Positions 23,430 to 58,629 of a stretch of DNA of 64,000 nt are shown here, one piece after another. The notes below the pieces were generated by a model. It made no database searches. It had not been told where the DNA came from and saw nothing but the letters and a program-made list of their open reading frames with translations. Origin of the DNA: Ostreococcus lucimarinus (lineage: Eukaryota); NCBI GenBank assembly GCA_000092065.1, contig CP000587.1. One strand, written 5' to 3'. Both the position numbers and the translations under genes were made by a program. Numbering within the stretch: the first letter of the stretch is position 1; every line of letters begins with the position of its first letter.

Positions 23430-24950
23430 ATGAGCGAGAACGACATGGCGGTCGCGAACGCGCCGGTGGACGCGTCGTGCGCGAAGAGTGCGATCGAGGG
23501 CGCGAGCGGCGACGCGCGAGCGGCGGCGGCGGTGCCGGCGTGGATGGCGGATGACGACGACGACGGGTTGACGGAGGAACAGCGAAGGGTGATCGCGGAG
23601 CGGGTGGCGGCGTTGCAGAATCGATTTAAGAAGTTTGAGGAGAAAACGACGCGGGAGAAGGTGGAGGAATTGATGCTCGGGAACGCGGATAAGGGGTTGA
23701 CGGAACGAGAGGCGGACATGGTGCTGAGAGTGTGTAACGGGAACGAGTTCGAGGCGAGCGACCGCCTCGGCGAGGCGGAGGATGGGGAATCGTTTTTGAT
23801 GTCTATTCGGTTCATGATTCAGGAAGAGGACGCGCTGAAACGACGTTCGCAGAGCTCAAAAGCGGCACAGACGGCGAACGAGCGGTTTAACAAGCGCATC
23901 GAGCGCTTGCGTAAGCGTCGGATGTCGTTCGGCGGCGACGAAGAGGACGAGGAAGACGCGGGCGAGCCGGAGGAGTTCTTCGAGACGGAGTACATTTTAG
24001 AAGAGAGTCTCGGCGTACAATTCGTGCGTCACACGAAGAAGCACGTGAATGTGAAACGTTTGCGTCTAGACGACGCCATCGCGCGCGCGCAAGTGGCGGA
24101 AGAGCTCGCGGAGCCGGAGGTCAACCCGTACGAAGGATGGTCCGAGGCGCGTATCAAGGCGTGGAAGAATCGCGAAAAGAATGAAAATCAATACTATTAT
24201 CGATTCAACGAACCGGGAGAGATGCAAGCGAACGGGAAATGGACGGACGAAGAACACCAAAAGTTCATGGATATCATCGCCTCTCTTCCTGGCGGCAAGG
24301 CGAACTACGAATGGGGCACGTTTTCCAAAGGTATCCCAGGCCGCGTCGGTTACCAGTGCTCGAATTATTACCGAACCTTGGTCAAAAACAATATCATCCA
24401 AGACGAAAACTATATGGTGGACCCGGTGTCGGGTGACCTGCGATTCAACTTCAAGAACAAGGGCTTCACGCGCGCCGAACCCGTCGAGGGTGAACCGCGC
24501 ATGGTCATGGTTAAGAAGGTCATCAAGCAGAAGAAACCGAAGGCCCCGAAGCAGCCGAAGAAGGCGAAGAAGAAGGTGAAGAAATCGGACGACAAGGCGT
24601 TCCACTGCACCATCAGAGCGGGTCCCGTGCGTTCGAGCGGTCGAGCGACTAAGAAGACGTACACCGACGGCGGCGACGACGACGAGGATTTCGACGATGA
24701 ATTCGAGGAACTTCCAGTACTCCCGGGATTCATCGATCCCATCACTCGCATGGCCATCGAAGAACCGGCGATTTCGCCGTACGGCCACGTCGCAGGTTAC
24801 GAGACGTGGTGCAAGATTCTTCGCCAACCCGAGGCACCGGACACGTGTCCGTTCACGAAGCAACCGTTAAAACGTCGCGAGCTGATCAAGCTCACGCACG
24901 AAAACATCGACCAATACCGCTCGAAGATCGTCGAAAACCAACAGACGTAG
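23430..24950 (+). CDS. SANT/Myb-like domain protein with a C-terminal U-box-like domain and a basic NLS stretch
   Basis: ATG at 23430. The Myb/SANT region is KWTDEEHQKFMDIIASLPGGKANYEWGTFSKGIPGRVGYQCSNYYRTL. The U-box consensus without zinc ligands is DPITRMAIEEPAISPYGHVAGYETWCKIL...TCPFTKQPLKRRELIKL (compare CPITxELMxDPVI...TCPxTxQPL). A K-rich linker lies between the two. Confidence 0.6.
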   Translation: MSENDMAVANAPVDASCAKSAIEGASGDARAAAAVPAWMADDDDDGLTEEQRRVIAERVAALQNRFKKFEEKTTREKVEELMLGNADKGLTEREADMVLRVCNGNEFEASDRLGEAEDGESFLMSIRFMIQEEDALKRRSQSSKAAQTANERFNKRIERLRKRRMSFGGDEEDEEDAGEPEEFFETEYILEESLGVQFVRHTKKHVNVKRLRLDDAIARAQVAEELAEPEVNPYEGWSEARIKAWKNREKNENQYYYRFNEPGEMQANGKWTDEEHQKFMDIIASLPGGKANYEWGTFSKGIPGRVGYQCSNYYRTLVKNNIIQDENYMVDPVSGDLRFNFKNKGFTRAEPVEGEPRMVMVKKVIKQKKPKAPKQPKKAKKKVKKSDDKAFHCTIRAGPVRSSGRATKKTYTDGGDDDEDFDDEFEELPVLPGFIDPITRMAIEEPAISPYGHVAGYETWCKILRQPEAPDTCPFTKQPLKRRELIKLTHENIDQYRSKIVENQQT

Positions 24951-25002
24951 ATTCCTCACCTTGTGATGAATACCTTTTGTACCTCACTTCCGTCCGCTCG
25001 CC

Positions 25003-25305
25003 ATGGCATCATCCCGCGCCGCCGCGCCCCCGAGTGGAGAAAACGCGCAAGTGCGCCATCTCGGGCGCGGCAACCGCGTGCGCACGCCTACGCATCCGAC
25101 GAAGGGCGACTATTTGAGCATCAAGACCGAAGAAGTCATCTTCGGCATCTTGTTCGCGTTCATGGCGTGGAAACTGTGGCAGAGCGTGCGCGGTTTATTT
25201 AGATACTGGAAGTACGTGCGCGCGCCGAACGCGCCGGAGACAGAGCTCGAGGCAGGGGCGATCGCGTTCGAGGAAGATGACGATGAGAACGAAAAGATTG
25301 ATTGA
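25003..25305 (+). CDS. Hypothetical small single-pass membrane protein
   Basis: ORF 100 aa with ATG at 25003. It has one hydrophobic helix (VIFGILFAFMAWKLWQSV) and moderate GC3. It lies between two convergent genes. Confidence 0.25.
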   Translation: MASSRAAAPPSGENAQVRHLGRGNRVRTPTHPTKGDYLSIKTEEVIFGILFAFMAWKLWQSVRGLFRYWKYVRAPNAPETELEAGAIAFEEDDDENEKID

Positions 25306-25378
25306 TTGATGGAGCGGGAAGGGTGGGACGGGACGTCGCGTAGGAATTAGTGTGTTGTAGTGTATCTATCGGTTCGGT

Positions 25379-25383
25379 TTACA
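25379..25383 (-). promoter_or_regulatory. TGTAA motif (minus strand) immediately after the SMC6 stop
   Basis: Plus-strand ggtttacaaattt reads taaatttgtaaacc on the minus strand. Confidence 0.25.
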
Positions 25384-25386
25384 AAT

Positions 25387-28300
25387 TTAAGACGGACGAG
25401 CGGCGATCATCTTTTGCACTTTGACGTCTGGGTCGTCGGCGTTGATGGCGCTCAAATCCTGCGGCGTGATGAACAAAAACTGTTTGTTTGAGTGATTGTC
25501 GCTTCTCGCAAATTCAAGAAGCGTCTTCATAGATATTCTACGGTTCACGGCATCCATGAATACGTCGAACTCATCCATCGCTCGGAAAGGCGAGTCAGAT
25601 TCATCGCCAAGCGCGAGGTTGAACGCGAGCGTGGAATACGATCGTTCACCACCACTCAAGGCGCGAGTGTCTGTGATAGCTCTCGTGTTCGTGCCATCCT
25701 TGAGCTTGATGATCAACTGCGATTCCTCGTAGTTGACTTCAATTTGACCCGCTTGCCCTTTCGCTTGCATATGATAGTTGAATCTGTGCGATACGTTGGC
25801 GGCGGTCTGGCGCGCTTGTGTTACCATCGTCTCCCGGCGCTTTCTGACGCCCACTCTGAGCTTTTGGAAAATCTTCTTTGAGCTCTCCACACCGTGTTCG
25901 AGTTTGATGAGCTTTCGCTTTCGGTCCGATAATTCATCGTTCACTTCTTCGTATGGTCTCTTGTGTCGACTCTCTTCCTTCTTCATCGATTCTTTCGTCT
26001 TTTCGTACAAGCGTTGCAGCTGTGTCGGTAACAAAGTGATATCGCCTGCGTGCTCTGCGACTTCGCGGTCACAAATTTCTTTCTTCGTTTTGTCGGCCAG
26101 CTCTTCGCATTCCGTCTTCATCGCCTGTATACTAGTTTCGCAGTCTTCGATGAGATTATCTGCTTGTTGAAGCCGCTCCACGCAAGTTTCAACTTGTTTC
26201 TCTGCCTTTTGACGTTCCGAATCAATCTTCTGCATTGCTTTGGCGTATTGCTCCACTTCTGCCTTGTACGAATCGGCGAGTGAGAGTTTCTCATTGATGA
26301 CGTTCTCTGCAATATCATGTGCCTCTTTAGCTTGCGTGAAAGCGAATTCGGCTTCTTTAAGACTACTTTGATGCTTGGATAAGTCGACATTGAGGCTGTC
26401 GAGCTCCTCCTGGAGCGTACTCACGTCAACCCCAGTGCCGCTCGAGTCTTCGGCGTCAAGTTTCGCTTGCTGCAAATCACTGAACGCCTTCTGAGCGTTC
26501 TTATTGAGAGTACTGAATTCAGCTTCTTTTTTCTTGATCATATTCGCAATGTCCTTGACGGCTCGCATGCACGCAGCCTCGTCGTTGCTGAGCAATTTGA
26601 TTTCAGATTGCTTTTCCTTGACTCGATTTTCCATCGACGCAATCTGCGCTTTCGGATCCGTTCCGAGTCGTTGTGCTTGATTGTAGCTTTTGAAGGCTTC
26701 ATCTCGCACGACTTGACCTGTCATGAAGATTTTACGATGGAAAGTATACGCCACCGCGACTTGCTTTTGTTTCGCGGCGCCGGAATAGAACATGCCTCTC
26801 GCCTCGCGTTCGTCTTTCATGAGCACGGCTCGTTCGATGCCGGCGCTATCGACGAGGAAGTTGAAAACCACGTCGTGTTTGCATTCCAGGACACTTTCGA
26901 TGGACGTGAATTCGGTTTGATTGGGTACCTTTTCAACAGGGATGTTGTATCTTCCACGGTTGAAGTCGACGCTTTGAATGCTTAAATTGTTCATGCCACA
27001 TTCTTTGCTGATTTGGCGCAGCTTATCCATGTCTTTCGGGCTTGAGACCAAAAATGTCGTCATAGATTGACCGAGAGCTTCTTCAACCGGAACAATCCAA
27101 CTTTGATCTTTGAGAGTGACGTGCATACCGACGGGTCCAATTGGAGGCTTGGAAAACTCACCCAGTCGCCTTTGCACCGTGTCGACGAGTCGTGGCATTT
27201 GCTGTCCGAAAAGCACCAACCTGTTGCTTGACGTCTGCTTCAGAGTGGAGATATGCTTGCGAATGTCGTTGATCTCATTCTCAGCAAACTTCTTTTGTCG
27301 CGCGAAGTTACTCTGTGCTCGCTGTTTGTCTTCCTGTCCGGCCTTCAATTTCTCTATATCGCCCGAGCACGTCTCAATCTCAGCCTTGGCAGCCACGAGG
27401 TTCGAGCTCAGTTTTTGCAATCGCCTATCAGTCTCTGTCGTGTCGCCTCGCTGCGCCTCCAACGACCGTTGAATCTTTGACTCCGTGTCGGACACGCGCT
27501 TCGAAAGCTTCCGCACGCTCGTTTCCTCGCTCAGTTTATCCGTCTCGGCCTTTTGCAATTGTCGCCCCGCTTCTCTACGCTCATTCTCAGCCTGACGACG
27601 CTCCGCGCTAAGCTCTTGAAGCTTTCTACTGAAATCTTCTGACTGTCGCCCAAACTCTTCGTTGTCTATGGCCGCCTTTTCGAGCGTCGCTTGCGCGGTG
27701 CCAAGTTTGGCTTGAAGTTCCCCTCTCTTCTGCACATACACCTGTTGTGCCTCCTTTTCTTCTTCCAACTTCTTTTCCGCCTCGACCACCTTCGACCACG
27801 CCAGACGATTCCTAAAATCGATCGCCTTCGATCGTAGCTCTTGCACGCGCTCAAACGAATGGAGCTCGTGCGTCAATTCTGCCACTTCCTCTCTAAGTTT
27901 TGGAATCGTTTCCAAGTGCTCGTTCAGCACGTCCTTCATCTCGTTTGACTTATTCTTTGCAATCTCTTGCAGCTCCATCAAATCCGACAACAGCGTCGCA
28001 TCGATGAAAAACTGATACTTCTTAGTCGCATCACCGGTGTGCAAGAACTTCTTCGCCATGTCCTGCGTCATCACCGTGATGGGATTATCGACGTCGATGC
28101 AAAAGTGGTCCGCGAGCTTATTCAACTCGTCCACCCGCGTCCCGACCGTTTCCCCGCTCTCGCTCTTAATCTTCAGCGAATTCGCCCCCGTCGCGTTCAA
28201 CACCTTCTCAACCGTGATCGATCGTCCGAACACATCCGGTTTAAACGCATCCTCTCCATCGTTCGAGATCACGACGACGACGCGCGCGAAGCTCGCCCCC

Positions 28301-28569
28301 GTCTTGATCATCCCTTTCGCGCTCTTCGTGCTCGACCGTCCGATGGATTTCATCTTCGCCCCGAGCGCGACCGCCAACGCGGTCAAAATCGCGCTCTTCC
28401 CGCTCCCGTTCTCGCCCGTGACGTAATTGATTCGCGGTCCGAGCTCAACCTTTGCGTTCGCGTGGCACATGAAGTTGTGCATGGTGACGCGAACGAACGC
28501 CCCGGCGACGCCTGGGAAGTGCGTCGGGGGCTTCGTTTCGGCGCCCTTGCGCTCCGTCTTCGCCACCAT
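25387..28569 (-). CDS. SMC6: Structural maintenance of chromosomes protein 6 (SMC6)
   Basis: ORF 1060 aa with ATG at 28569. It has the N-terminal Walker A head (FMCHANAKVELGPRINYVTGENGSGKSAILTALAVALG), long coiled coils, a hinge, and a C-terminal signature and Walker B head (ALSGGERSYSTLAFNLALG...MDEFDVFMD). SMC6-specific spacing. Confidence 0.85.
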   Translation of the reverse strand: MVAKTERKGAETKPPTHFPGVAGAFVRVTMHNFMCHANAKVELGPRINYVTGENGSGKSAILTALAVALGAKMKSIGRSSTKSAKGMIKTGASFARVVVVISNDGEDAFKPDVFGRSITVEKVLNATGANSLKIKSESGETVGTRVDELNKLADHFCIDVDNPITVMTQDMAKKFLHTGDATKKYQFFIDATLLSDLMELQEIAKNKSNEMKDVLNEHLETIPKLREEVAELTHELHSFERVQELRSKAIDFRNRLAWSKVVEAEKKLEEEKEAQQVYVQKRGELQAKLGTAQATLEKAAIDNEEFGRQSEDFSRKLQELSAERRQAENERREAGRQLQKAETDKLSEETSVRKLSKRVSDTESKIQRSLEAQRGDTTETDRRLQKLSSNLVAAKAEIETCSGDIEKLKAGQEDKQRAQSNFARQKKFAENEINDIRKHISTLKQTSSNRLVLFGQQMPRLVDTVQRRLGEFSKPPIGPVGMHVTLKDQSWIVPVEEALGQSMTTFLVSSPKDMDKLRQISKECGMNNLSIQSVDFNRGRYNIPVEKVPNQTEFTSIESVLECKHDVVFNFLVDSAGIERAVLMKDEREARGMFYSGAAKQKQVAVAYTFHRKIFMTGQVVRDEAFKSYNQAQRLGTDPKAQIASMENRVKEKQSEIKLLSNDEAACMRAVKDIANMIKKKEAEFSTLNKNAQKAFSDLQQAKLDAEDSSGTGVDVSTLQEELDSLNVDLSKHQSSLKEAEFAFTQAKEAHDIAENVINEKLSLADSYKAEVEQYAKAMQKIDSERQKAEKQVETCVERLQQADNLIEDCETSIQAMKTECEELADKTKKEICDREVAEHAGDITLLPTQLQRLYEKTKESMKKEESRHKRPYEEVNDELSDRKRKLIKLEHGVESSKKIFQKLRVGVRKRRETMVTQARQTAANVSHRFNYHMQAKGQAGQIEVNYEESQLIIKLKDGTNTRAITDTRALSGGERSYSTLAFNLALGDESDSPFRAMDEFDVFMDAVNRRISMKTLLEFARSDNHSNKQFLFITPQDLSAINADDPDVKVQKMIAARPS

Positions 28570-28694
28570 CGCGCTTCTCTTCGCTCGCGTCGCGTCTCAC
28601 GACGTTCGCGGCGCCGCGCGCGGCGCGATGGCGTCGTCCGTCGCCGGCTGTCGAAATTTGAATCGCGTCGACGCGCGCCGCACACGGCGTCGCG
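28570..28694. promoter_or_regulatory. Divergent promoter region between SMC6 (minus) and the CDP-alcohol phosphotransferase (plus), 125 bp
   Basis: Head-to-head ATG codons at 28569 and 28695. Confidence 0.35.
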
Positions 28695-52729: not shown

Positions 52730-53722
52730 TCATAACGTCATGATTTCCTTCTCCTTCGCCGCACATCGCTGCGTGATCTTTCCCACGATGTCGTCGGTGA
52801 GCGCTTGTAAATTCTTCTCCGCGCGCTTTCGATCGTCCTCCGACATTTCGGCGCGCTTGATTCGCTTTTGCGCCTTGTGCCGGATGTTGCGCGCGGCAAT
52901 CTTGGCCGTCTCGCCGAGCTTGCTCGCGAGCTTGCACACCTCTTTCCTCGTATCCTGTGTCATCGCTGGAATGGGCACGATCAAACCATCACTGGACTCT
53001 TTGGGAACGAAACCGAGCGGCGAGTTCACGATGGCTTTCTCCACGCTCGGCTTGGTGCTCGGATCGAACAGCGTGACGGAGAGCGTCTGCGCATTTGGCG
53101 CCGTGATCGTGCCCAAGTGCGAGAGTGGCGTCGGTTCACCGTATACATCGACAATAATGTGATCAATCATCCCCGCCGACGCGCGCGCCGTGCGCAACTG
53201 CGACAAATCGACATCCAACGCGTGCAACGCCGCGTCAAATTTACTATTCGCGACGTCCGCGTCAGTCGTGCATTCGCGCGCGCATCACCGCGCGCATCGA
53301 GTGCGCGCCCTCGCATCGACGTACCTCTGCCACTCTTTCGCGTCGTACTCCACGACGTCGCCTTCCTCGCCACCGTCGCCGTCACCGTCCTCGTCGCCGT
53401 CGCCGTCTTCGTCGCTCGCCGCCGCCGCTCTTTGTTTCTGCTTCTTCTTCTTGCTATACGACCTCGCGGCGACGTCCCGCGCTGCCGCCGGCGTCGACGC
53501 GCGCATCGAGAGCAGACACCAGCGCATCGCCGTCCCGCCTCGCGCGTCGTCGAACGACGCCGTCGTCGCGACGTCACCGCGCGCGCGCATCGTCGAAAGT
53601 TGTCGTCGCGGTGCGGCGTCGCCACGCGCGACGGCGTCGCCGAGCGCGGACGATGCGCGAGCGCCGTCGAGGATTGCGCGCGCGGCGCGCGCGCGCGCGG
53701 CGAATCGGCGTAGGCCTGACAT
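52730..53722 (-). CDS. Ribosome recycling factor (organellar type), with an intron at 53244..53324 and a long N-terminal extension
   Basis: The downstream exon (53243..52730) encodes S-KFDAALHALDVDLSQLRTARASAGMIDHIIVDVYGEPTPLSHLGTITAPNAQTLSVTLFDPS...SEDDRKRAEKNLQALTDDI...KEKEIMTL, which is classic RRF. The supplied ORF's M at 53227 is actually TTG. The minus-strand donor GTACGT is at 53324..53319, ACTGAC at 53266..53261 and the acceptor TAG at 53246..53244. The intron contains the in-frame TGA. The upstream exon runs to ATG at 53722 (a transit-peptide-like segment plus an acidic stretch). Its extent is uncertain. Confidence 0.65.
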
Positions 53723-53826: not shown

Positions 53827-56800
53827 TCAAAGTCGGAAAAGCTTTCGTTTGGGTTGCGTGTGCTCGCCAACCACCCGCGGGCGCGCCGAGGCGTCGGTCA
53901 AGGGTGACGAGAAATTCGGCGCGGGCGCGAGCGAGAAATGCTTCGAAGGCGAGTACGGTTCGCGAACGTACTTGATGCCCGAAGATGGTGGCGGTGCGTT
54001 CATGGCGGCGTCGTAGCCGTTGGAGGACATGAATTTACGATCGTACATGTAATCAGCGTGCACGCCCACCGGGGCGGCGTTTTGATTGGTGGACTCTCGC
54101 GGCGGCGGCGCGAAATGCGGCGGCGGCGCGTACATCCTGTCGTACATCATCCGCTGCATCATCTCACGCATCGTCGCGAGTTCAGATTCGAGCGCTCCAA
54201 TTTTTGTCACCATGTACTCATGTTCTTTCACTGGAACGGTCACGAGGTCGCCGGATATAGCCACGGGCTGCTCCACGCGCATCTTTGACTGCGGCGTATC
54301 GTCGCTCGGCGATCGCGCGACGGCGTACGGCTTTCCACCACCGAGGCTTTCGCTCTGCGGGGACTCAATTATCGGTGGCTTAGCGTATCGGGCGACAGGT
54401 GGTTTTGTGTGCGACTTTCGCTCGGCTTCCTCAGGGCTGGAAACCGGCTTGATCGCCACGGATGGGAGGTTCATTGACTCAGCCTTGACGGGAGACTTAG
54501 CCAGCGGTCCGACAAACTCGCCTCGACTCCATCTTCTGCATTCATCCTCAAAATGTTCTTCCACGTGATCGCGAATGAGAGAAAATCGCGGGAAAACTTT
54601 GTCATCCAGTTTGAACTTATACTGACGATGACCCGTGTACTCGACGAACTCAGCCAAGAAGCCGTTGATGTCTCCCAGTTCCAACTTTTTCACAGACGCC
54701 TGCACCTTAACTTGCGCTGGTGGCGGTTTCGACTTTTCGCGCGGTGGCTCGCGTGGCACAATGACAGTTTCTGTCGTTGCCTCGACTATATCGTCGTGTT
54801 TGACGATGGCAACCTCTTCTTCCTCTTCAAAGACTTCGTTTGATTCCTTGGAATTCGTCAACGACGCCAATTTCTGCAACGCTTCTTGCACGCTATCTTT
54901 GCGCTGTTTTTTCGCACTATCACGAAGCGCGTCAAAACTAATTTTCAAGAGCGGGTCGACATCTGCTGATTTTGTTGGAGTCGTCTCCGCAGACTTCGCA
55001 GCGATTTCTTCATACTGCGCGACTTTGACCTTCACTACACCGCTCTGTTTGACTTTGTTGAGCTCGGCCGTGATGAGTTTGATCGCTTCGAGCACCACTT
55101 GCGTGCCTGGATGATCGAGTCCGAACTTTTGCACTCTGATATCTTTCGCGCGAGTGTAACACGGTAGTGCCTCACCCCACTCTTTCATTTCCATCAACAA
55201 CTCACCCAACTCGACACATCGCGTAGCAATGTTGGTGTGCGCCGCGTCGAACTCGCCCTCAGCGATTTTCAGCGCCTGCTCGAAACACGCCTTCGCCTTA
55301 AGTGTTCTACCTTGTGATCTATAACATCTCCCGAGATTGATCAAGTAAGTTTCAAGCTCTGAACTAGCGTGGAAATCATGTTCGGCGATTTCGACAGCAC
55401 GGCTGTACAGAGGTTCGGCTCTTTGGGCTTGGTCCATACTCTTGTATTTTTCAGCCAAGGAATTTAGACTCGCAGCGAGTCCTGGGTGCACAGTTTCATT
55501 CGTTTCTTTGAGAATGGCTTCCGCCTCTTTGTATTGACGGAGCGCTTCGAGATTTTCACCACGCGCTCTTAGAACACTCGCGAGATATATTTGATGCACA
55601 GCGAGGTTGGGGTGATTTCGCCCGAAAAGTTGCGTATCCACGTCGAGTGCTTTCGTGTATAAAGCCTTCGCTTGATCGAAGTTACGTAACTCTAAGTGCA
55701 TAGACGCTAAATCACTCAATCTTTCAGCTGTTCCATGATGCAAATCTCCAAATCTTGACTTGGTGATGTTGAGCGCCTTGATGAACGTTTGCTTTGCCTC
55801 TTCGGGCTTTTTCAGTTTACGCAGAACACGCGCGTGCTCGGTGAACACGCTGGCGAGAAGTTCCAAAAGCAATGGTTGACCGTTTGAATCGGTGACACAC
55901 TCCATCTCCTTCGTCACGTCTTCGTAAACCTCTCGAGCGCTGACTAAATCATTTTTCATAACGTACACTTTCGCGAGGGATCTCAAATTCTCAAGCAGTC
56001 CTAGAGAACGATCCGGGTACGCGTCGACGCAATGTTTGAGTGCTTGCTCCATGCAGAATTCACTTTTATCCCATTCTCCATGCCTAGCGTAGACCGCACT
56101 CAATCGAAGCATCTCGCGATATATAGCGTCGTGATCAGCACCGAGCTTGTTTTCCAACTCGTCCATCAGTTGTTCGTGTATTTCGATTTCCTTCAAGCCT
56201 TTACCCTTCAACCCATACAACGTCGCTACATTCATTGTTACGCAAGCGGCGTGATTGAATACTTCCTTCACGCTCTTGTCTTTCATGCAGACTCGCCACG
56301 CCGCTAAGGACGCCTCTGCACTCTCTAGAGCGTCGTTAATGAATTCCTCGACTTCACCCTTCGTCCCTCGCAGGTTATGATTATCGAGGGTAATTTCTTC
56401 ATCCTTTGTGCGCACCAAGCACAGACTCTCTTCGTTCATGATCATCGCACCTAAAGGTGTATTTCCATTGAAGTTTGCTGACTCGAACTTCCGAGCGAGC
56501 TTTGCCACACTCGCCGCTTTTTCCCAATCCGCCGTCTGACGCAAAGCATTTGCGTACTTCATGTTGAGCGACGCTGCATGTTGCAGCTGAAACGTTGCTC
56601 GACTACACGCGAGATCGCACACCGCGATGACGCTCGTGTAATCTGAAATCCACTTCATGAAGTCGGCGATAGATTCAGCACACGAGTCCCGCGTGCGATC
56701 GTTCATTCTTCCGAGGCGAGTGAGAATCGACTCCATGGGGGTGCGCTGGACAACGTCCGATACTTGCGTCGCCGTCGCAATTTTCCAACTCAATACCAGC

Positions 56801-58515
56801 TCGTTGATATATCGCTGTTTCCACAAGAAATGAATCACCTGTGGATCTGTGATGTAGCCCATGAACTGATCCCTAGCGACCAACCACTCACCGTTTCTCA
56901 CAAAATGCAGTAACTCGAGGACGTGGTGCACGTTGAAATCACCACTCGTGTCGGAAAACTTGCGCAGGAAGTACGTCATGGCGTCGCGTTGAATGTTATT
57001 CTTTGCTTCATCCTTCACCAAGTACCTGCTGCGTACATAGTCGATGACTACCGATGATCGTAGGACGAGCGCATCTTGCGGCATCTCAGGCGCTCGCGCG
57101 CCGTCTTCTTCATAGCACCAGCAAAGATGCGCGACGTCATCCGTGAGCGCCAAGAACGACGAAGACGTCCTACCGACCTCGATAATATCGGCGATTTCAT
57201 TCGCTGAAAGGCCAGCGCGTGAAGAAGCCATGAGCGTGAACAATTGACGCACCACATTATGGCCGTGGTTGTACTCTAATCCTTCGAATATATACCTTAA
57301 CAACTGCTCGATCGTCTCAGGTATTTGTCTCAACTCGTGCGCGACGTCCAGAGGTGCGTCGACTCTGCGCTGACTCAATTTTACCCGTCGACGCATTTCA
57401 TGCGCGACAAGATAGATATAAGTCGGCGAACTCGCGTCCTTGTAGCTATATATTGGCTCAAACAGATCACTCGTGATTTCTCGCTCGTCGTTTCGGCTGA
57501 AAAGGCCGCGAGCGAGCTGCGTGCGTTCCTTGATGCCGAGCGGTGGCAACCGCTTCCTCGCAACGGCTGCCGCGTTTTCACCGCCGCTCGCTAAATAATT
57601 CACCGCATCTCCTTTCGTTCGCGCGCCAATGATCACACGAACGTCTGACATCATAGAAGACGGCAACCAGTCGGACATTTTCACCGAGCCGAGCTCCGCC
57701 GCCGCGTCTAAATCGTCTACGACAAGCACCACCACGCTCGATGTTGTCAGCGCCAATTCCTCCATCAATCGAACGAACACTCGTCCCGTCTCTTCCGCGG
57801 TCACCGGCATGTTTGTAAATCTCGCTTGTCCGAGCATCTTTCGCACGCGTTCGCACATCGTCCACAGCACATGCCTCAAATCGCACTCCCCCGGCGTCGG
57901 TCCTCGACAGCACACGTGCAACGCCAGCGGTTTCTTCCCCATCACCCTCTCACCCGTCACCTCCTCCTCCTCTATCATTCTCGCCGTGCGTTCGCGCAAA
58001 TCTTTAACGAACTCGCTCAGCACCGAGCTCACGCCGCTCCCTCGTTCGCCCTCGAGCACGAACACGTTCGGCGCGTCGTCTCGCAGCGCGTGCGCGCGCA
58101 GCTTTTCCAGCGTCTCTGCCCGTCCGACAAACTTCCCTCGCGCATCTCTTCGCGATATCGCAGCGCTCGCGCGTTCAATTATCACTGATCGCGCCTCTGC
58201 GTCTTCGGTTCCGTCGATCGCGACGCGTCGCGTCGTCGGCAGGCGCAATTCTCGTCGCTCGAGGTCGGTGAGCGAACCGACCGCGGGCGCGCTCGAGGGC
58301 GGCGAATTGGCGGGCGCGGACGCCGCGCGCCGCGCGCGGTCGGGTTTGAGGATGGATTTGGGCGCGCTCGACGCGCCGGGAGCGGCGCGCGCGCTCGAGG
58401 GCGGCGACGGGGGCATCGCGCGCGTCGCGATGTGCGGCAGTGGTCGTTGGCTCGGGCGCTCGCGCGGCGCCGCGGCGTCTGTCGCGCGCCGATTCCGATC
58501 GAAAGCGCGACGCAT
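53827..58515 (-). CDS. STAND-class P-loop NTPase (NACHT/NB-ARC-like) with kinesin-light-chain-type TPR repeats and an uncharacterised C-terminal region (NPHP3-like architecture)
   Basis: The ORF's first codon at 58560 is TTG, and the first ATG is at 58515. The NTPase core is VFVLEGERGSGVSSVL (Walker A lacking the lysine), VVVLVVDDLD (Walker B), VRVIIGART and LPPLGIKERTQLARGLF (GLPL-like). About 10 TPR_12-type repeats occupy aa 800-1150. They are followed by roughly 400 aa with a conserved-looking module (FLAEFVEYTGHRQYKFKLDDKVFPRFSLIRDHVEEHFEDE) and proline-rich tails. Confidence 0.7.
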   Translation of the reverse strand: MRRAFDRNRRATDAAAPRERPSQRPLPHIATRAMPPSPPSSARAAPGASSAPKSILKPDRARRAASAPANSPPSSAPAVGSLTDLERRELRLPTTRRVAIDGTEDAEARSVIIERASAAISRRDARGKFVGRAETLEKLRAHALRDDAPNVFVLEGERGSGVSSVLSEFVKDLRERTARMIEEEEVTGERVMGKKPLALHVCCRGPTPGECDLRHVLWTMCERVRKMLGQARFTNMPVTAEETGRVFVRLMEELALTTSSVVVLVVDDLDAAAELGSVKMSDWLPSSMMSDVRVIIGARTKGDAVNYLASGGENAAAVARKRLPPLGIKERTQLARGLFSRNDEREITSDLFEPIYSYKDASSPTYIYLVAHEMRRRVKLSQRRVDAPLDVAHELRQIPETIEQLLRYIFEGLEYNHGHNVVRQLFTLMASSRAGLSANEIADIIEVGRTSSSFLALTDDVAHLCWCYEEDGARAPEMPQDALVLRSSVVIDYVRSRYLVKDEAKNNIQRDAMTYFLRKFSDTSGDFNVHHVLELLHFVRNGEWLVARDQFMGYITDPQVIHFLWKQRYINELVLSWKIATATQVSDVVQRTPMESILTRLGRMNDRTRDSCAESIADFMKWISDYTSVIAVCDLACSRATFQLQHAASLNMKYANALRQTADWEKAASVAKLARKFESANFNGNTPLGAMIMNEESLCLVRTKDEEITLDNHNLRGTKGEVEEFINDALESAEASLAAWRVCMKDKSVKEVFNHAACVTMNVATLYGLKGKGLKEIEIHEQLMDELENKLGADHDAIYREMLRLSAVYARHGEWDKSEFCMEQALKHCVDAYPDRSLGLLENLRSLAKVYVMKNDLVSAREVYEDVTKEMECVTDSNGQPLLLELLASVFTEHARVLRKLKKPEEAKQTFIKALNITKSRFGDLHHGTAERLSDLASMHLELRNFDQAKALYTKALDVDTQLFGRNHPNLAVHQIYLASVLRARGENLEALRQYKEAEAILKETNETVHPGLAASLNSLAEKYKSMDQAQRAEPLYSRAVEIAEHDFHASSELETYLINLGRCYRSQGRTLKAKACFEQALKIAEGEFDAAHTNIATRCVELGELLMEMKEWGEALPCYTRAKDIRVQKFGLDHPGTQVVLEAIKLITAELNKVKQSGVVKVKVAQYEEIAAKSAETTPTKSADVDPLLKISFDALRDSAKKQRKDSVQEALQKLASLTNSKESNEVFEEEEEVAIVKHDDIVEATTETVIVPREPPREKSKPPPAQVKVQASVKKLELGDINGFLAEFVEYTGHRQYKFKLDDKVFPRFSLIRDHVEEHFEDECRRWSRGEFVGPLAKSPVKAESMNLPSVAIKPVSSPEEAERKSHTKPPVARYAKPPIIESPQSESLGGGKPYAVARSPSDDTPQSKMRVEQPVAISGDLVTVPVKEHEYMVTKIGALESELATMREMMQRMMYDRMYAPPPHFAPPPRESTNQNAAPVGVHADYMYDRKFMSSNGYDAAMNAPPPSSGIKYVREPYSPSKHFSLAPAPNFSSPLTDASARPRVVGEHTQPKRKLFRL

Positions 58516-58629
58516 GCGGGGCGAAAGAGTGCGTAAATAATGCGAGATGTTGATTAACAACGTTCGAGGGATGAGAGCGTACCTAACGGGCTACGGCGTC
58601 GATGGCCGAAAATGCGCGCGCGAGCGGTG

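Follow-up and report, generated by a model that had tools for sequence, protein, structure and literature searches.

A STAND-TPR protein of Ostreococcus lucimarinus whose lineage has lost the Walker A lysine and, probably, the nucleotide switch

STAND and NLR proteins are normally understood as nucleotide-driven switches. Much of the ground next to the protein described here is already known, namely STAND-TPR proteins, NACHT relatives of NPHP3 and TEP1, and degenerate P-loops in NLRs. The TeTIR-NACHT family comprises TEP1, NWD1, NWD2, TTC41 and NPHP3, has cell-death effector activity and has no representatives reported in plants; in NPHP3 the accessory TeTIR domain is inactivated (bioRxiv 10.64898/2026.09.21.753143). 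Rice Pb1, Arabidopsis ADR1-L2 and an NLRC4 P-loop mutant are P-loop-less or P-loop-independent NLRs thought to be adaptors (PMC3478704). We analyzed a 64,000-nucleotide stretch of Ostreococcus lucimarinus contig CP000587.1 (the window) and describe a large single-exon gene that joins a STAND module to TPRs and whose product lacks the Walker A lysine, as do its orthologues. On balance, we consider that this protein is probably a nucleotide-independent pseudo-STAND scaffold. We found nothing in the literature on such NB-ARC/NACHT-TPR proteins in Ostreococcus or Micromonas. An algal NACHT-TPR subfamily without TeTIR and with a C-terminal finger-like domain appears undescribed, as does the conversion of that subfamily to a conserved pseudo-NTPase across Ostreococcus lineages. 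The gene, its STAND module and the motifs of the nucleotide site, with residues numbered in amino acids (aa), are as follows.

53827..58515, minus strand: complete single-exon coding sequence, 1562 aa from the first ATG, stop codon at 53827-53829 (from the list of open reading frames and the translation)
56596..58218, minus strand: STAND module, aa 100-640, with nucleotide-binding-like, helical, winged-helix and second helical domains
58024..58050, minus strand: degenerate Walker A, GERGSGVSS, aa 156-164, aligned column for column with the GxxGxGKS of homologues
57706..57738, minus strand: Walker B strand SVVVLVVDDLD, aa 260-270, with D267 retained and followed by a second acidic residue
57616..57642, minus strand: beta4 strand VRVIIGART, aa 292-300, from comparison of the family consensus with the target
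57043..57069, minus strand: LVLRSSVVI, aa 483-491, the family F-x-H-x-Q motif, immediately following the winged-helix hairpin (past strand 383-386 in the model)

The columns of the nucleotide site were read from an alignment of the target with 70 homologues, and were compared with syntenic orthologues from three other lineages (P0061, P0062 and P0227, the last being the N-terminal fragment that is the usable part of locus L003). The initial annotation had proposed a Walker A with its lysine replaced by valine, and this was borne out: within GERGSGVSS, residue 162 is a Val encoded by GTG (58030-58032), at a position where 99% of 68 homologues have Lys. GxxxxGK[ST] is intact in 135 of the 150 homologues listed (of 372), and those that lack it, among those listed, include the orthologue group, its fragments and a few other matches. 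The target retains Gly at G156, G159 and G161 (99-100% Gly in the family) and Ser at S163 (90% Ser). The proposed Walker B, VVVLVVDD, is also genuine, D267 lying in a column where the family has 100% Asp and where each of the three full-length orthologues keeps it. Further site residues are altered. S297, at the end of beta4 (88% Ser in the family), is Gly in the target and all three full-length orthologues; R412 (96% Arg) is Gly in the target and G or D in orthologues, and is lost in all three full-length ones; H487 (90% His) is Ser in the target and all three full-length orthologues; and S210 (97% Ser) is Glu in the target and lost in two of three, being kept in P0061. Other STAND proteins have an ADP-contacting His at the place directly after the winged-helix hairpin, and from the alignment and the model we infer that the H487 position may correspond to it. 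Two further motif assignments were revised. LPPLG, offered as a GLPL-like motif, aligns instead with the family 'v.pL..eE' strand/helix junction after the nucleotide-binding domain, and the GLPL-type position of the target reads SPTYIYL (NPLYL in the family). The sensor-like VRVIIGART is a strand, beta4, but the sensor label is unproven, with no conserved family Arg at that place (consensus IVSTL).

The loss of the lysine extends across the lineage. None of the three syntenic orthologues keeps GxxxxGK[ST]: the Walker A reads GERGVGMSS in the P0061 cluster, ESASGGGSS in P0227 and ESDDDVDLE in P0062, placing M, S and L, respectively, at the Lys position. Within populations these states are stable, Val being fixed (GERGSGVSS) in all ten variants of the target that cover the site and Met in 14 variants of the P0061 cluster. 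The surrounding loop has diverged to different degrees. P0061 keeps all three glycines and P0227 keeps G159 and G161 with Ser at 156, both with Ser at 163; P0062 has none of the three, Glu at 163 and four acidic residues in the motif. In P0062 the P-loop is gone, yet the rest of the protein and the synteny are kept. Val, Met, Ser or Leu at the Lys position, combined with a loop erased in one lineage, indicates that the loss is old and that the site, now dispensable, has since drifted. The pseudo-NTPase reading of the initial annotation was exposed at two points, the match of the NTPase-like region to a STAND family (below) and the P-loops of the orthologues, and it withstood both.

Selection was estimated as the ratio of nonsynonymous to synonymous substitution rates (dN/dS, Nei-Gojobori) in three pairwise comparisons among three members of the P0061 species complex. 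The ratio was 0.11-0.24 for the NTPase-like module, 0.17-0.20 for the TPR array, 0.23-0.24 for the C-terminal tail and 0.18-0.23 for the whole gene, and in two of the three comparisons the NTPase-like value was no higher than those of the TPRs and the tail. With these values, the NTPase-like module is still constrained by purifying selection. Over the three full-length lineages, the nucleotide-binding-like domain (41-55% identity) and a finger-like domain in the tail (57-66%) are the best-conserved parts, and the whole protein is 41-43% identical as against 80-85% for the flanking glycyl-tRNA synthetase (GlyRS) and ABC1 kinase. Judged from these comparisons, the gene evolves fast yet is clearly not decaying.

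Homology and predicted fold identify the core as a STAND module, and one of the NACHT (TEP1/NWD/NPHP3-like) kind. Among Pfam families, AAA_16 matched the target at 33.1-34.6 bits, just over its gathering score of 32.6; NACHT (PF05729) reached 13.9-17.1 bits, under its gathering score of 26.7, HTH_NWD1 reached 17.7-19.9 bits against 27, and nSTAND_NTPase5 was below threshold. Since the target itself is under the NACHT gathering score, its membership of NACHT is by transitive homology only. NACHT was matched at 33-43 bits by homologues P0069, P0067, P0078 and P0082, with HTH_NWD1 above threshold in P0078 and P0082, and NPHP3_N was passed by relative P0068. An exhaustive phmmer search with aa 100-760 against 1.84 billion representative proteins (E<=1e-3) returned 372 homologues, with E=1e-18 to 1e-10 to NACHT proteins. 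Those non-orthologous matches that were scanned with Pfam have two architectures, (DUF4062)-NACHT/NPHP3_N-HTH_NWD1-WD40 and NACHT-TPR_12. A profile built from 30 homologues matched the TEP1 TeTIR crystal chain with E=3.5e-58 via their N-terminal domain, which identifies the relatives as the TeTIR-NACHT family; a profile of the NTPase region gave no meaningful match to PDB sequences. The predicted structure of the target contains the contiguous nucleotide-binding, helical and winged-helix fold, and the tabulated matches to it were MalT (18.2), NRC2 (17.4), Apaf-1 (15.3) and NRC1 (14.0), followed in further rows by ZAR1 (13.0), PH0952 (12.8) and NLRP3 (12.5). The STAND assignment called for by the initial annotation was thus obtained, from AAA_16 above its gathering score, the phmmer matches and the predicted fold. 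Its alternative label, NB-ARC, was rejected: NB-ARC is absent from every Pfam list, for the target and the scanned homologues alike, and LPPLG lies off the GLPL-type position.

58219..58515, minus strand: N-terminal segment of about 99 aa, rich in Pro, Ala, Ser and Arg and poorly conserved (17-23% identity to orthologues; GC 0.76)

This segment had no Pfam match, and no TeTIR/DUF4062, TIR, CARD or similar effector was found in it. P0061 begins about 60 aa later than the target.

55096..56145, minus strand: kinesin-light-chain-type TPR array, aa 791-1140, about 8 units of 42 aa (Pfam and self-jackhmmer)

The repeats had been described as about 10 TPRs of kinesin-light-chain type; the type was upheld, and the count comes down to about 8. 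TPR_12 matched with E=4e-50 and 168 bits (gathering score 30.1) in 8 stretches, TPR_10 also matched, and self-jackhmmer resolved 7-8 clear 42-aa units at aa 802-1137. The second-best Pfam match was TPR_NPHP3, whose 95.6 bits narrowly miss the gathering score of 100. KLC1 and KLC2 were the best PDB sequence matches, over aa ~936-1116 (KLC1 E=5e-13).

54511..54669, minus strand: C2H2-zinc-finger-like beta-beta-alpha domain, aa 1283-1335, with Phe and Asp at the two Cys positions
54130..54240, minus strand: short conserved amphipathic helix, aa 1426-1462 (...KIGALESELATMREMMQRMMYDR), 32-54% identical in orthologues

The last ~420 residues are mostly poorly conserved (20-31% identity) with two conserved islands. 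The C-terminal region of about 400 aa had been taken as one module of no recognizable family; Pfam indeed lists nothing for aa 1230-1562 at E<=1 and only Capsid_pestivir (E=5.6) at E<=10, but the region resolves into a domain of ~50 aa and a helix of ~35 aa within poorly conserved sequence. The block singled out there as conserved-looking, FLAEFVEYTGHRQYKFKLDD..., is so, at 57-66% identity in orthologues. The domain at aa 1283-1335 (INGFLAEFVEYTGHRQYKFKLDDKVFPRFSLIRDHVEEHFEDECRRWSRGEFV) has the spacing of a C2H2 finger, Y-x-C-x2-C-x3-F-x5-L-x2-H-x3-H, and its AlphaFold model shows a helix-beta-beta-beta-helix-helix topology with core predicted local distance difference test scores of 83-90, which makes a C2H2-like fold plausible, if weakly so. 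Metal binding by the target domain appears unlikely, as the ligand positions are F1301, D1304, H1317 and H1321 and thus do not form a Cys2-His2 set; in P0061 the two His are replaced by Y and N, and no zinc-finger family was matched by Pfam in the target tail. A profile search of the domain against 5.8 billion proteins recovered only 12 short fragments of such proteins. The domain occurs once in P0061 and twice in P0062, P0066, P0068 and P0075. In these relatives the second copy is strongly conserved (RRKFLCEIDGKVFSTMNLMRVHFERHY..W; aa 1577-1639 of P0062 and the C-termini of P0066, P0068 and P0075), and most second copies have C, D, H and H/C as ligands. This copy has been lost from the target and P0061, which end about 90 residues earlier (RKLFRL/RKLCRL), and the window holds no second finger-like domain past the stop codon. 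The helix at aa 1426-1462 may form a coiled coil; segments of the form 'R-V-E-E-L-E-E-E-L' resembling it are present in P0066 and P0068.

P0066, P0068 and P0075 combine a canonical P-loop, a TPR array and two finger-like domains, and have fewer than 120 residues ahead of the P-loop; Pfam found no DUF4062 in P0066 or P0068. With a gene GC of 0.67, a GC content at third codon positions (GC3) of 0.79 and a neighbouring gene that occurs in MMETSP, these canonical-P-loop proteins come from other, GC-rich algae, which are probably related.

We hypothesize the following route to a pseudo-STAND scaffold. The ancestor would have been an active NACHT-type (TEP1/NWD/NPHP3-like) NTPase joined to kinesin-light-chain-type TPRs and a zinc-finger-like tail. 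In the Ostreococcus lineage the Walker A Lys was lost (four lineages now have V, M, S or L, and one of them an acidic P-loop), along with the winged-helix His (a putative ADP contact), the beta4 Ser and the Arg in the three full-length orthologues; what was kept is the fold, together with the Walker B Asp and hydrophobic core. The protein would then no longer be a nucleotide-driven switch. Its block of nucleotide-binding, helical and winged-helix domains could act as a fixed structural or oligomerization platform, the TPR array could bind peptide partners, and the tail, with its degenerate beta-beta-alpha finger and short helix, might provide a further contact with protein or nucleic acid. A more specific version, which we regard as possible but doubtful, is that an active NACHT-TPR-(zinc-finger-like)x2 switch of prasinophytes became a nucleotide-free pseudo-STAND kept by selection in the non-flagellate Ostreococcus, and that the acidic patch ESDDDVDLE of one species may mimic bound phosphate and lock one conformation.

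Several observations weigh against a nucleotide-independent scaffold. Because G-x-x-G-x-G, Ser163 and the Walker B Asp are all present in the target and P0061, these two may still bind nucleotide in a weak or atypical way. Of 14 variable sites in intraspecific amino-acid polymorphism, 8 fall in the NTPase-like region, a possible sign, from small numbers, that constraint is weaker in that part. The canonical-P-loop proteins may be paralogues rather than orthologues of the Ostreococcus gene. Lastly, the gene has a GC3 of 0.62, the lowest of its neighbourhood (0.68-0.78) and of 12 open reading frames compared (0.63-0.78 in the others), with 0.51 in the TPR part and 0.83 in the N-terminal 99 codons, and a GC below that of the flanks is common to the target gene and the orthologous loci L004 and L005; this may reflect low expression or a quirk of composition, and counts as a difficulty insofar as it reflects low expression.

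The first of these observations leads to the rival that survives best, in which the protein would still be a nucleotide-binding switch with a non-canonical site built from the glycine-rich loop, Ser163 and the Walker B Asp, the basic residue being supplied from elsewhere. Kinases with a relocated catalytic Lys are a model for such a site. The three glycines and the Ser persist in both GERGSGVSS and GERGVGMSS, D267 is invariant, the domain is under purifying selection, and the P-loop is modelled at high confidence in the usual strand-loop-helix geometry. P0062 contradicts this account for the group as a whole, since its ESDDDVDLE is no P-loop; moreover, the Lys position differs in each lineage, as for an unconstrained site, and H487, S297 and R412 are jointly lost in all three full-length orthologues. 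We therefore hold a surviving non-canonical switch to be unlikely.

A second rival, which we rate as a distinctly poor prospect, would make the protein an NLR-like immune sensor or adaptor, directed for example against prasinoviruses, its dead P-loop being the mark of a member that signals through a partner with an intact NTPase in the manner of paired plant NLRs. The STAND and TPR architecture would suit such a role, P-loop-less NLR helpers or adaptors exist (PMC3478704), and cell-death effector activity is known from the related TeTIR-NACHT family (bioRxiv 10.64898/2026.09.21.753143). The fast divergence relative to GlyRS and ABC1 would fit as well, but the TPRs are not hypervariable, with a single amino-acid variant in 355 residues and the low dN/dS given above, and no effector domain of the TeTIR/DUF4062, TIR, CARD or similar kind was found. 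The setting of the gene also speaks against an immune role. It is a single-copy syntenic gene and not an expanded family, the order GlyRS - ABC1 kinase - STAND gene - (small open reading frames) - ribosome recycling factor (RRF) being the same in all four lineages. The genes flanking it are housekeeping genes, the neighbours being GlyRS, ABC1 kinase, RRF, an F-box-like protein, a protein kinase, SufBD and a TFIIS/SPOC protein. No second STAND gene adjoins the target, the neighbourhood carries no defence-island signature and PADLOC returned only a generic TPR match at the locus. A defence-island location was rejected on these grounds.

The last rival, a decaying gene (a pseudogene in the making) or a Lys to Val change produced by sequencing or assembly, has the loss of several catalytic-site residues, the low GC3 and an evolution faster than that of the neighbours in its favour, but is extremely improbable and was rejected in both forms, because the 1562-codon frame is intact in many independent assemblies with V162 throughout and in all variants that cover the site, the change from Lys (AAR to GTG) requires two base changes, the orthologues also lack the Lys and have intact open reading frames of 1573-1640 aa, and the whole-gene dN/dS is 0.18-0.23.

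The window consists of long, mostly intron-less open reading frames packed on both strands, with a GC of ~0.6. The gene lies in a single uninterrupted open reading frame (53827-58560, minus strand); it had been annotated as a single-exon gene of 1560 aa, of which the single exon stands and the length becomes 1562 aa. All sequence strings cited by the initial annotation are present in the protein. Two independent SRA assemblies encode an identical 1562-aa protein, and at 90% identity it falls in a cluster of 197 members from marine metagenomes. The protein of a neighbouring gene clusters at >=90% identity with XP_001418717 of O. lucimarinus CCE9901, which places the DNA in Ostreococcus, close to O. 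lucimarinus. Two public 'proteins', P0063 and P0065 (~57800-58220), are translations of the target gene with solely C to T changes at the DNA level (Ala to Val, Arg to Trp/Cys, Thr to Met/Ile, Pro to Ser/Leu, His to Tyr), and seem to have been assembled from reads that were bisulfite-converted or otherwise deaminated, rather than to represent real variants. In L003 (an ENA ERZ28548099 contig of 829 kb, from a polished long-read assembly), ABC1 is split in two and the STAND gene is spread over about ten short gene calls, a fragmentation that most likely stems from residual indel errors. On the other side of the gene, the RRF open reading frame (52730-53227, minus strand) encodes 165 aa and has an Ala/Arg-rich frame of 80 aa directly upstream (53285-53527, minus strand); RRF products in other assemblies are 315-319 aa, and the two frames may be parts of one gene, in which an intron or a change of frame links a transit peptide to RRF. 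Synteny differs slightly in the P0061 lineage, which has a photolyase gene (L005 9820-11865) separating RRF from the STAND gene; the window and L004 have none at that place. Elsewhere in the window, positions 24001-28600 have a markedly lower GC (0.50-0.54) and an AT skew of -0.27, and hold an open reading frame of 1060 aa (25387-28569, minus strand; GC 0.51).

If the more specific version given above, with a prasinophyte switch turned into a nucleotide-free pseudo-STAND, is true, the protein would be a natural, evolutionarily stable 'frozen switch' of the STAND type, and would define a NACHT subfamily of algae, so far undescribed, whose output domain is at the C-terminus and not at the N-terminus. 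STAND members that are kept by selection without a nucleotide site show which scaffold functions need no nucleotide cycling. One small algal group here supplies a comparative series: the P-loop is intact in relatives, the Lys is replaced with the glycines kept in two lineages, the first glycine is also lost in P0227 (a fragment), and the P-loop is erased in one lineage. As Ostreococcus is genetically tractable, this series is open to experiment. The analysis further shows that the animal TEP1/NWD/NPHP3 NACHT family has relatives in green algae that lack the effector and have a finger-like C-terminal domain not described before.

Compared with the TeTIR-NACHT family, the target has a homologous NTPase-like module and the same order of NACHT, winged helix and repeats (WD40 or TPR in the family). 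It differs in having only ~100 poorly conserved residues upstream in place of TeTIR/DUF4062, in lacking the Walker A Lys and other site residues, and in carrying an additional C-terminal finger-like domain and helix; the algal subgroup thus lacks TeTIR, the feature that defines the family. Like NPHP3, the target has a NACHT-type NTPase followed by kinesin-light-chain-type TPRs. Unlike NPHP3, it has no NPHP3_N match, no N-terminal coiled coil or TeTIR and a dead P-loop, and NPHP3 orthology was rejected, TPR_NPHP3 reaching 95.6 against a gathering score of 100. The initial annotation had also raised a ciliopathy-like, NPHP3-type role. Ostreococcus is non-motile and without a flagellum, which Micromonas has, and because the host alga has no cilium a ciliary role of NPHP3 cannot carry over and is unlikely here (PMC3491373). 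A link between loss of the switch and loss of the flagellum is speculation. With Pb1, ADR1-L2 and NLRC4 the target shares the position of a STAND protein that works, or is proposed to work, as an adaptor or scaffold without canonical nucleotide cycling; those proteins are of NB-ARC or NLRC type, with leucine-rich repeats, N-terminal signalling domains and roles in immunity, whereas the target is a NACHT-TPR protein of a unicellular alga with no N-terminal effector. Its TPR unit is of the same 42-aa TPR_12/TPR_10 type as that of kinesin light chain, which differs in having a heptad-repeat kinesin-binding region, absent from the target, where the TPRs are joined to a STAND module. Finally, the finger-like domain resembles ARS2/SERRATE-type and U1/matrin-type C2H2 fingers in its predicted helix-beta-beta-(beta)-alpha topology and ligand spacing. 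It departs from them at the ligand positions: the target has F, D, H and H there, P0061 does not conserve these residues, and C, D, H and H/C are confined to the second copy in relatives.

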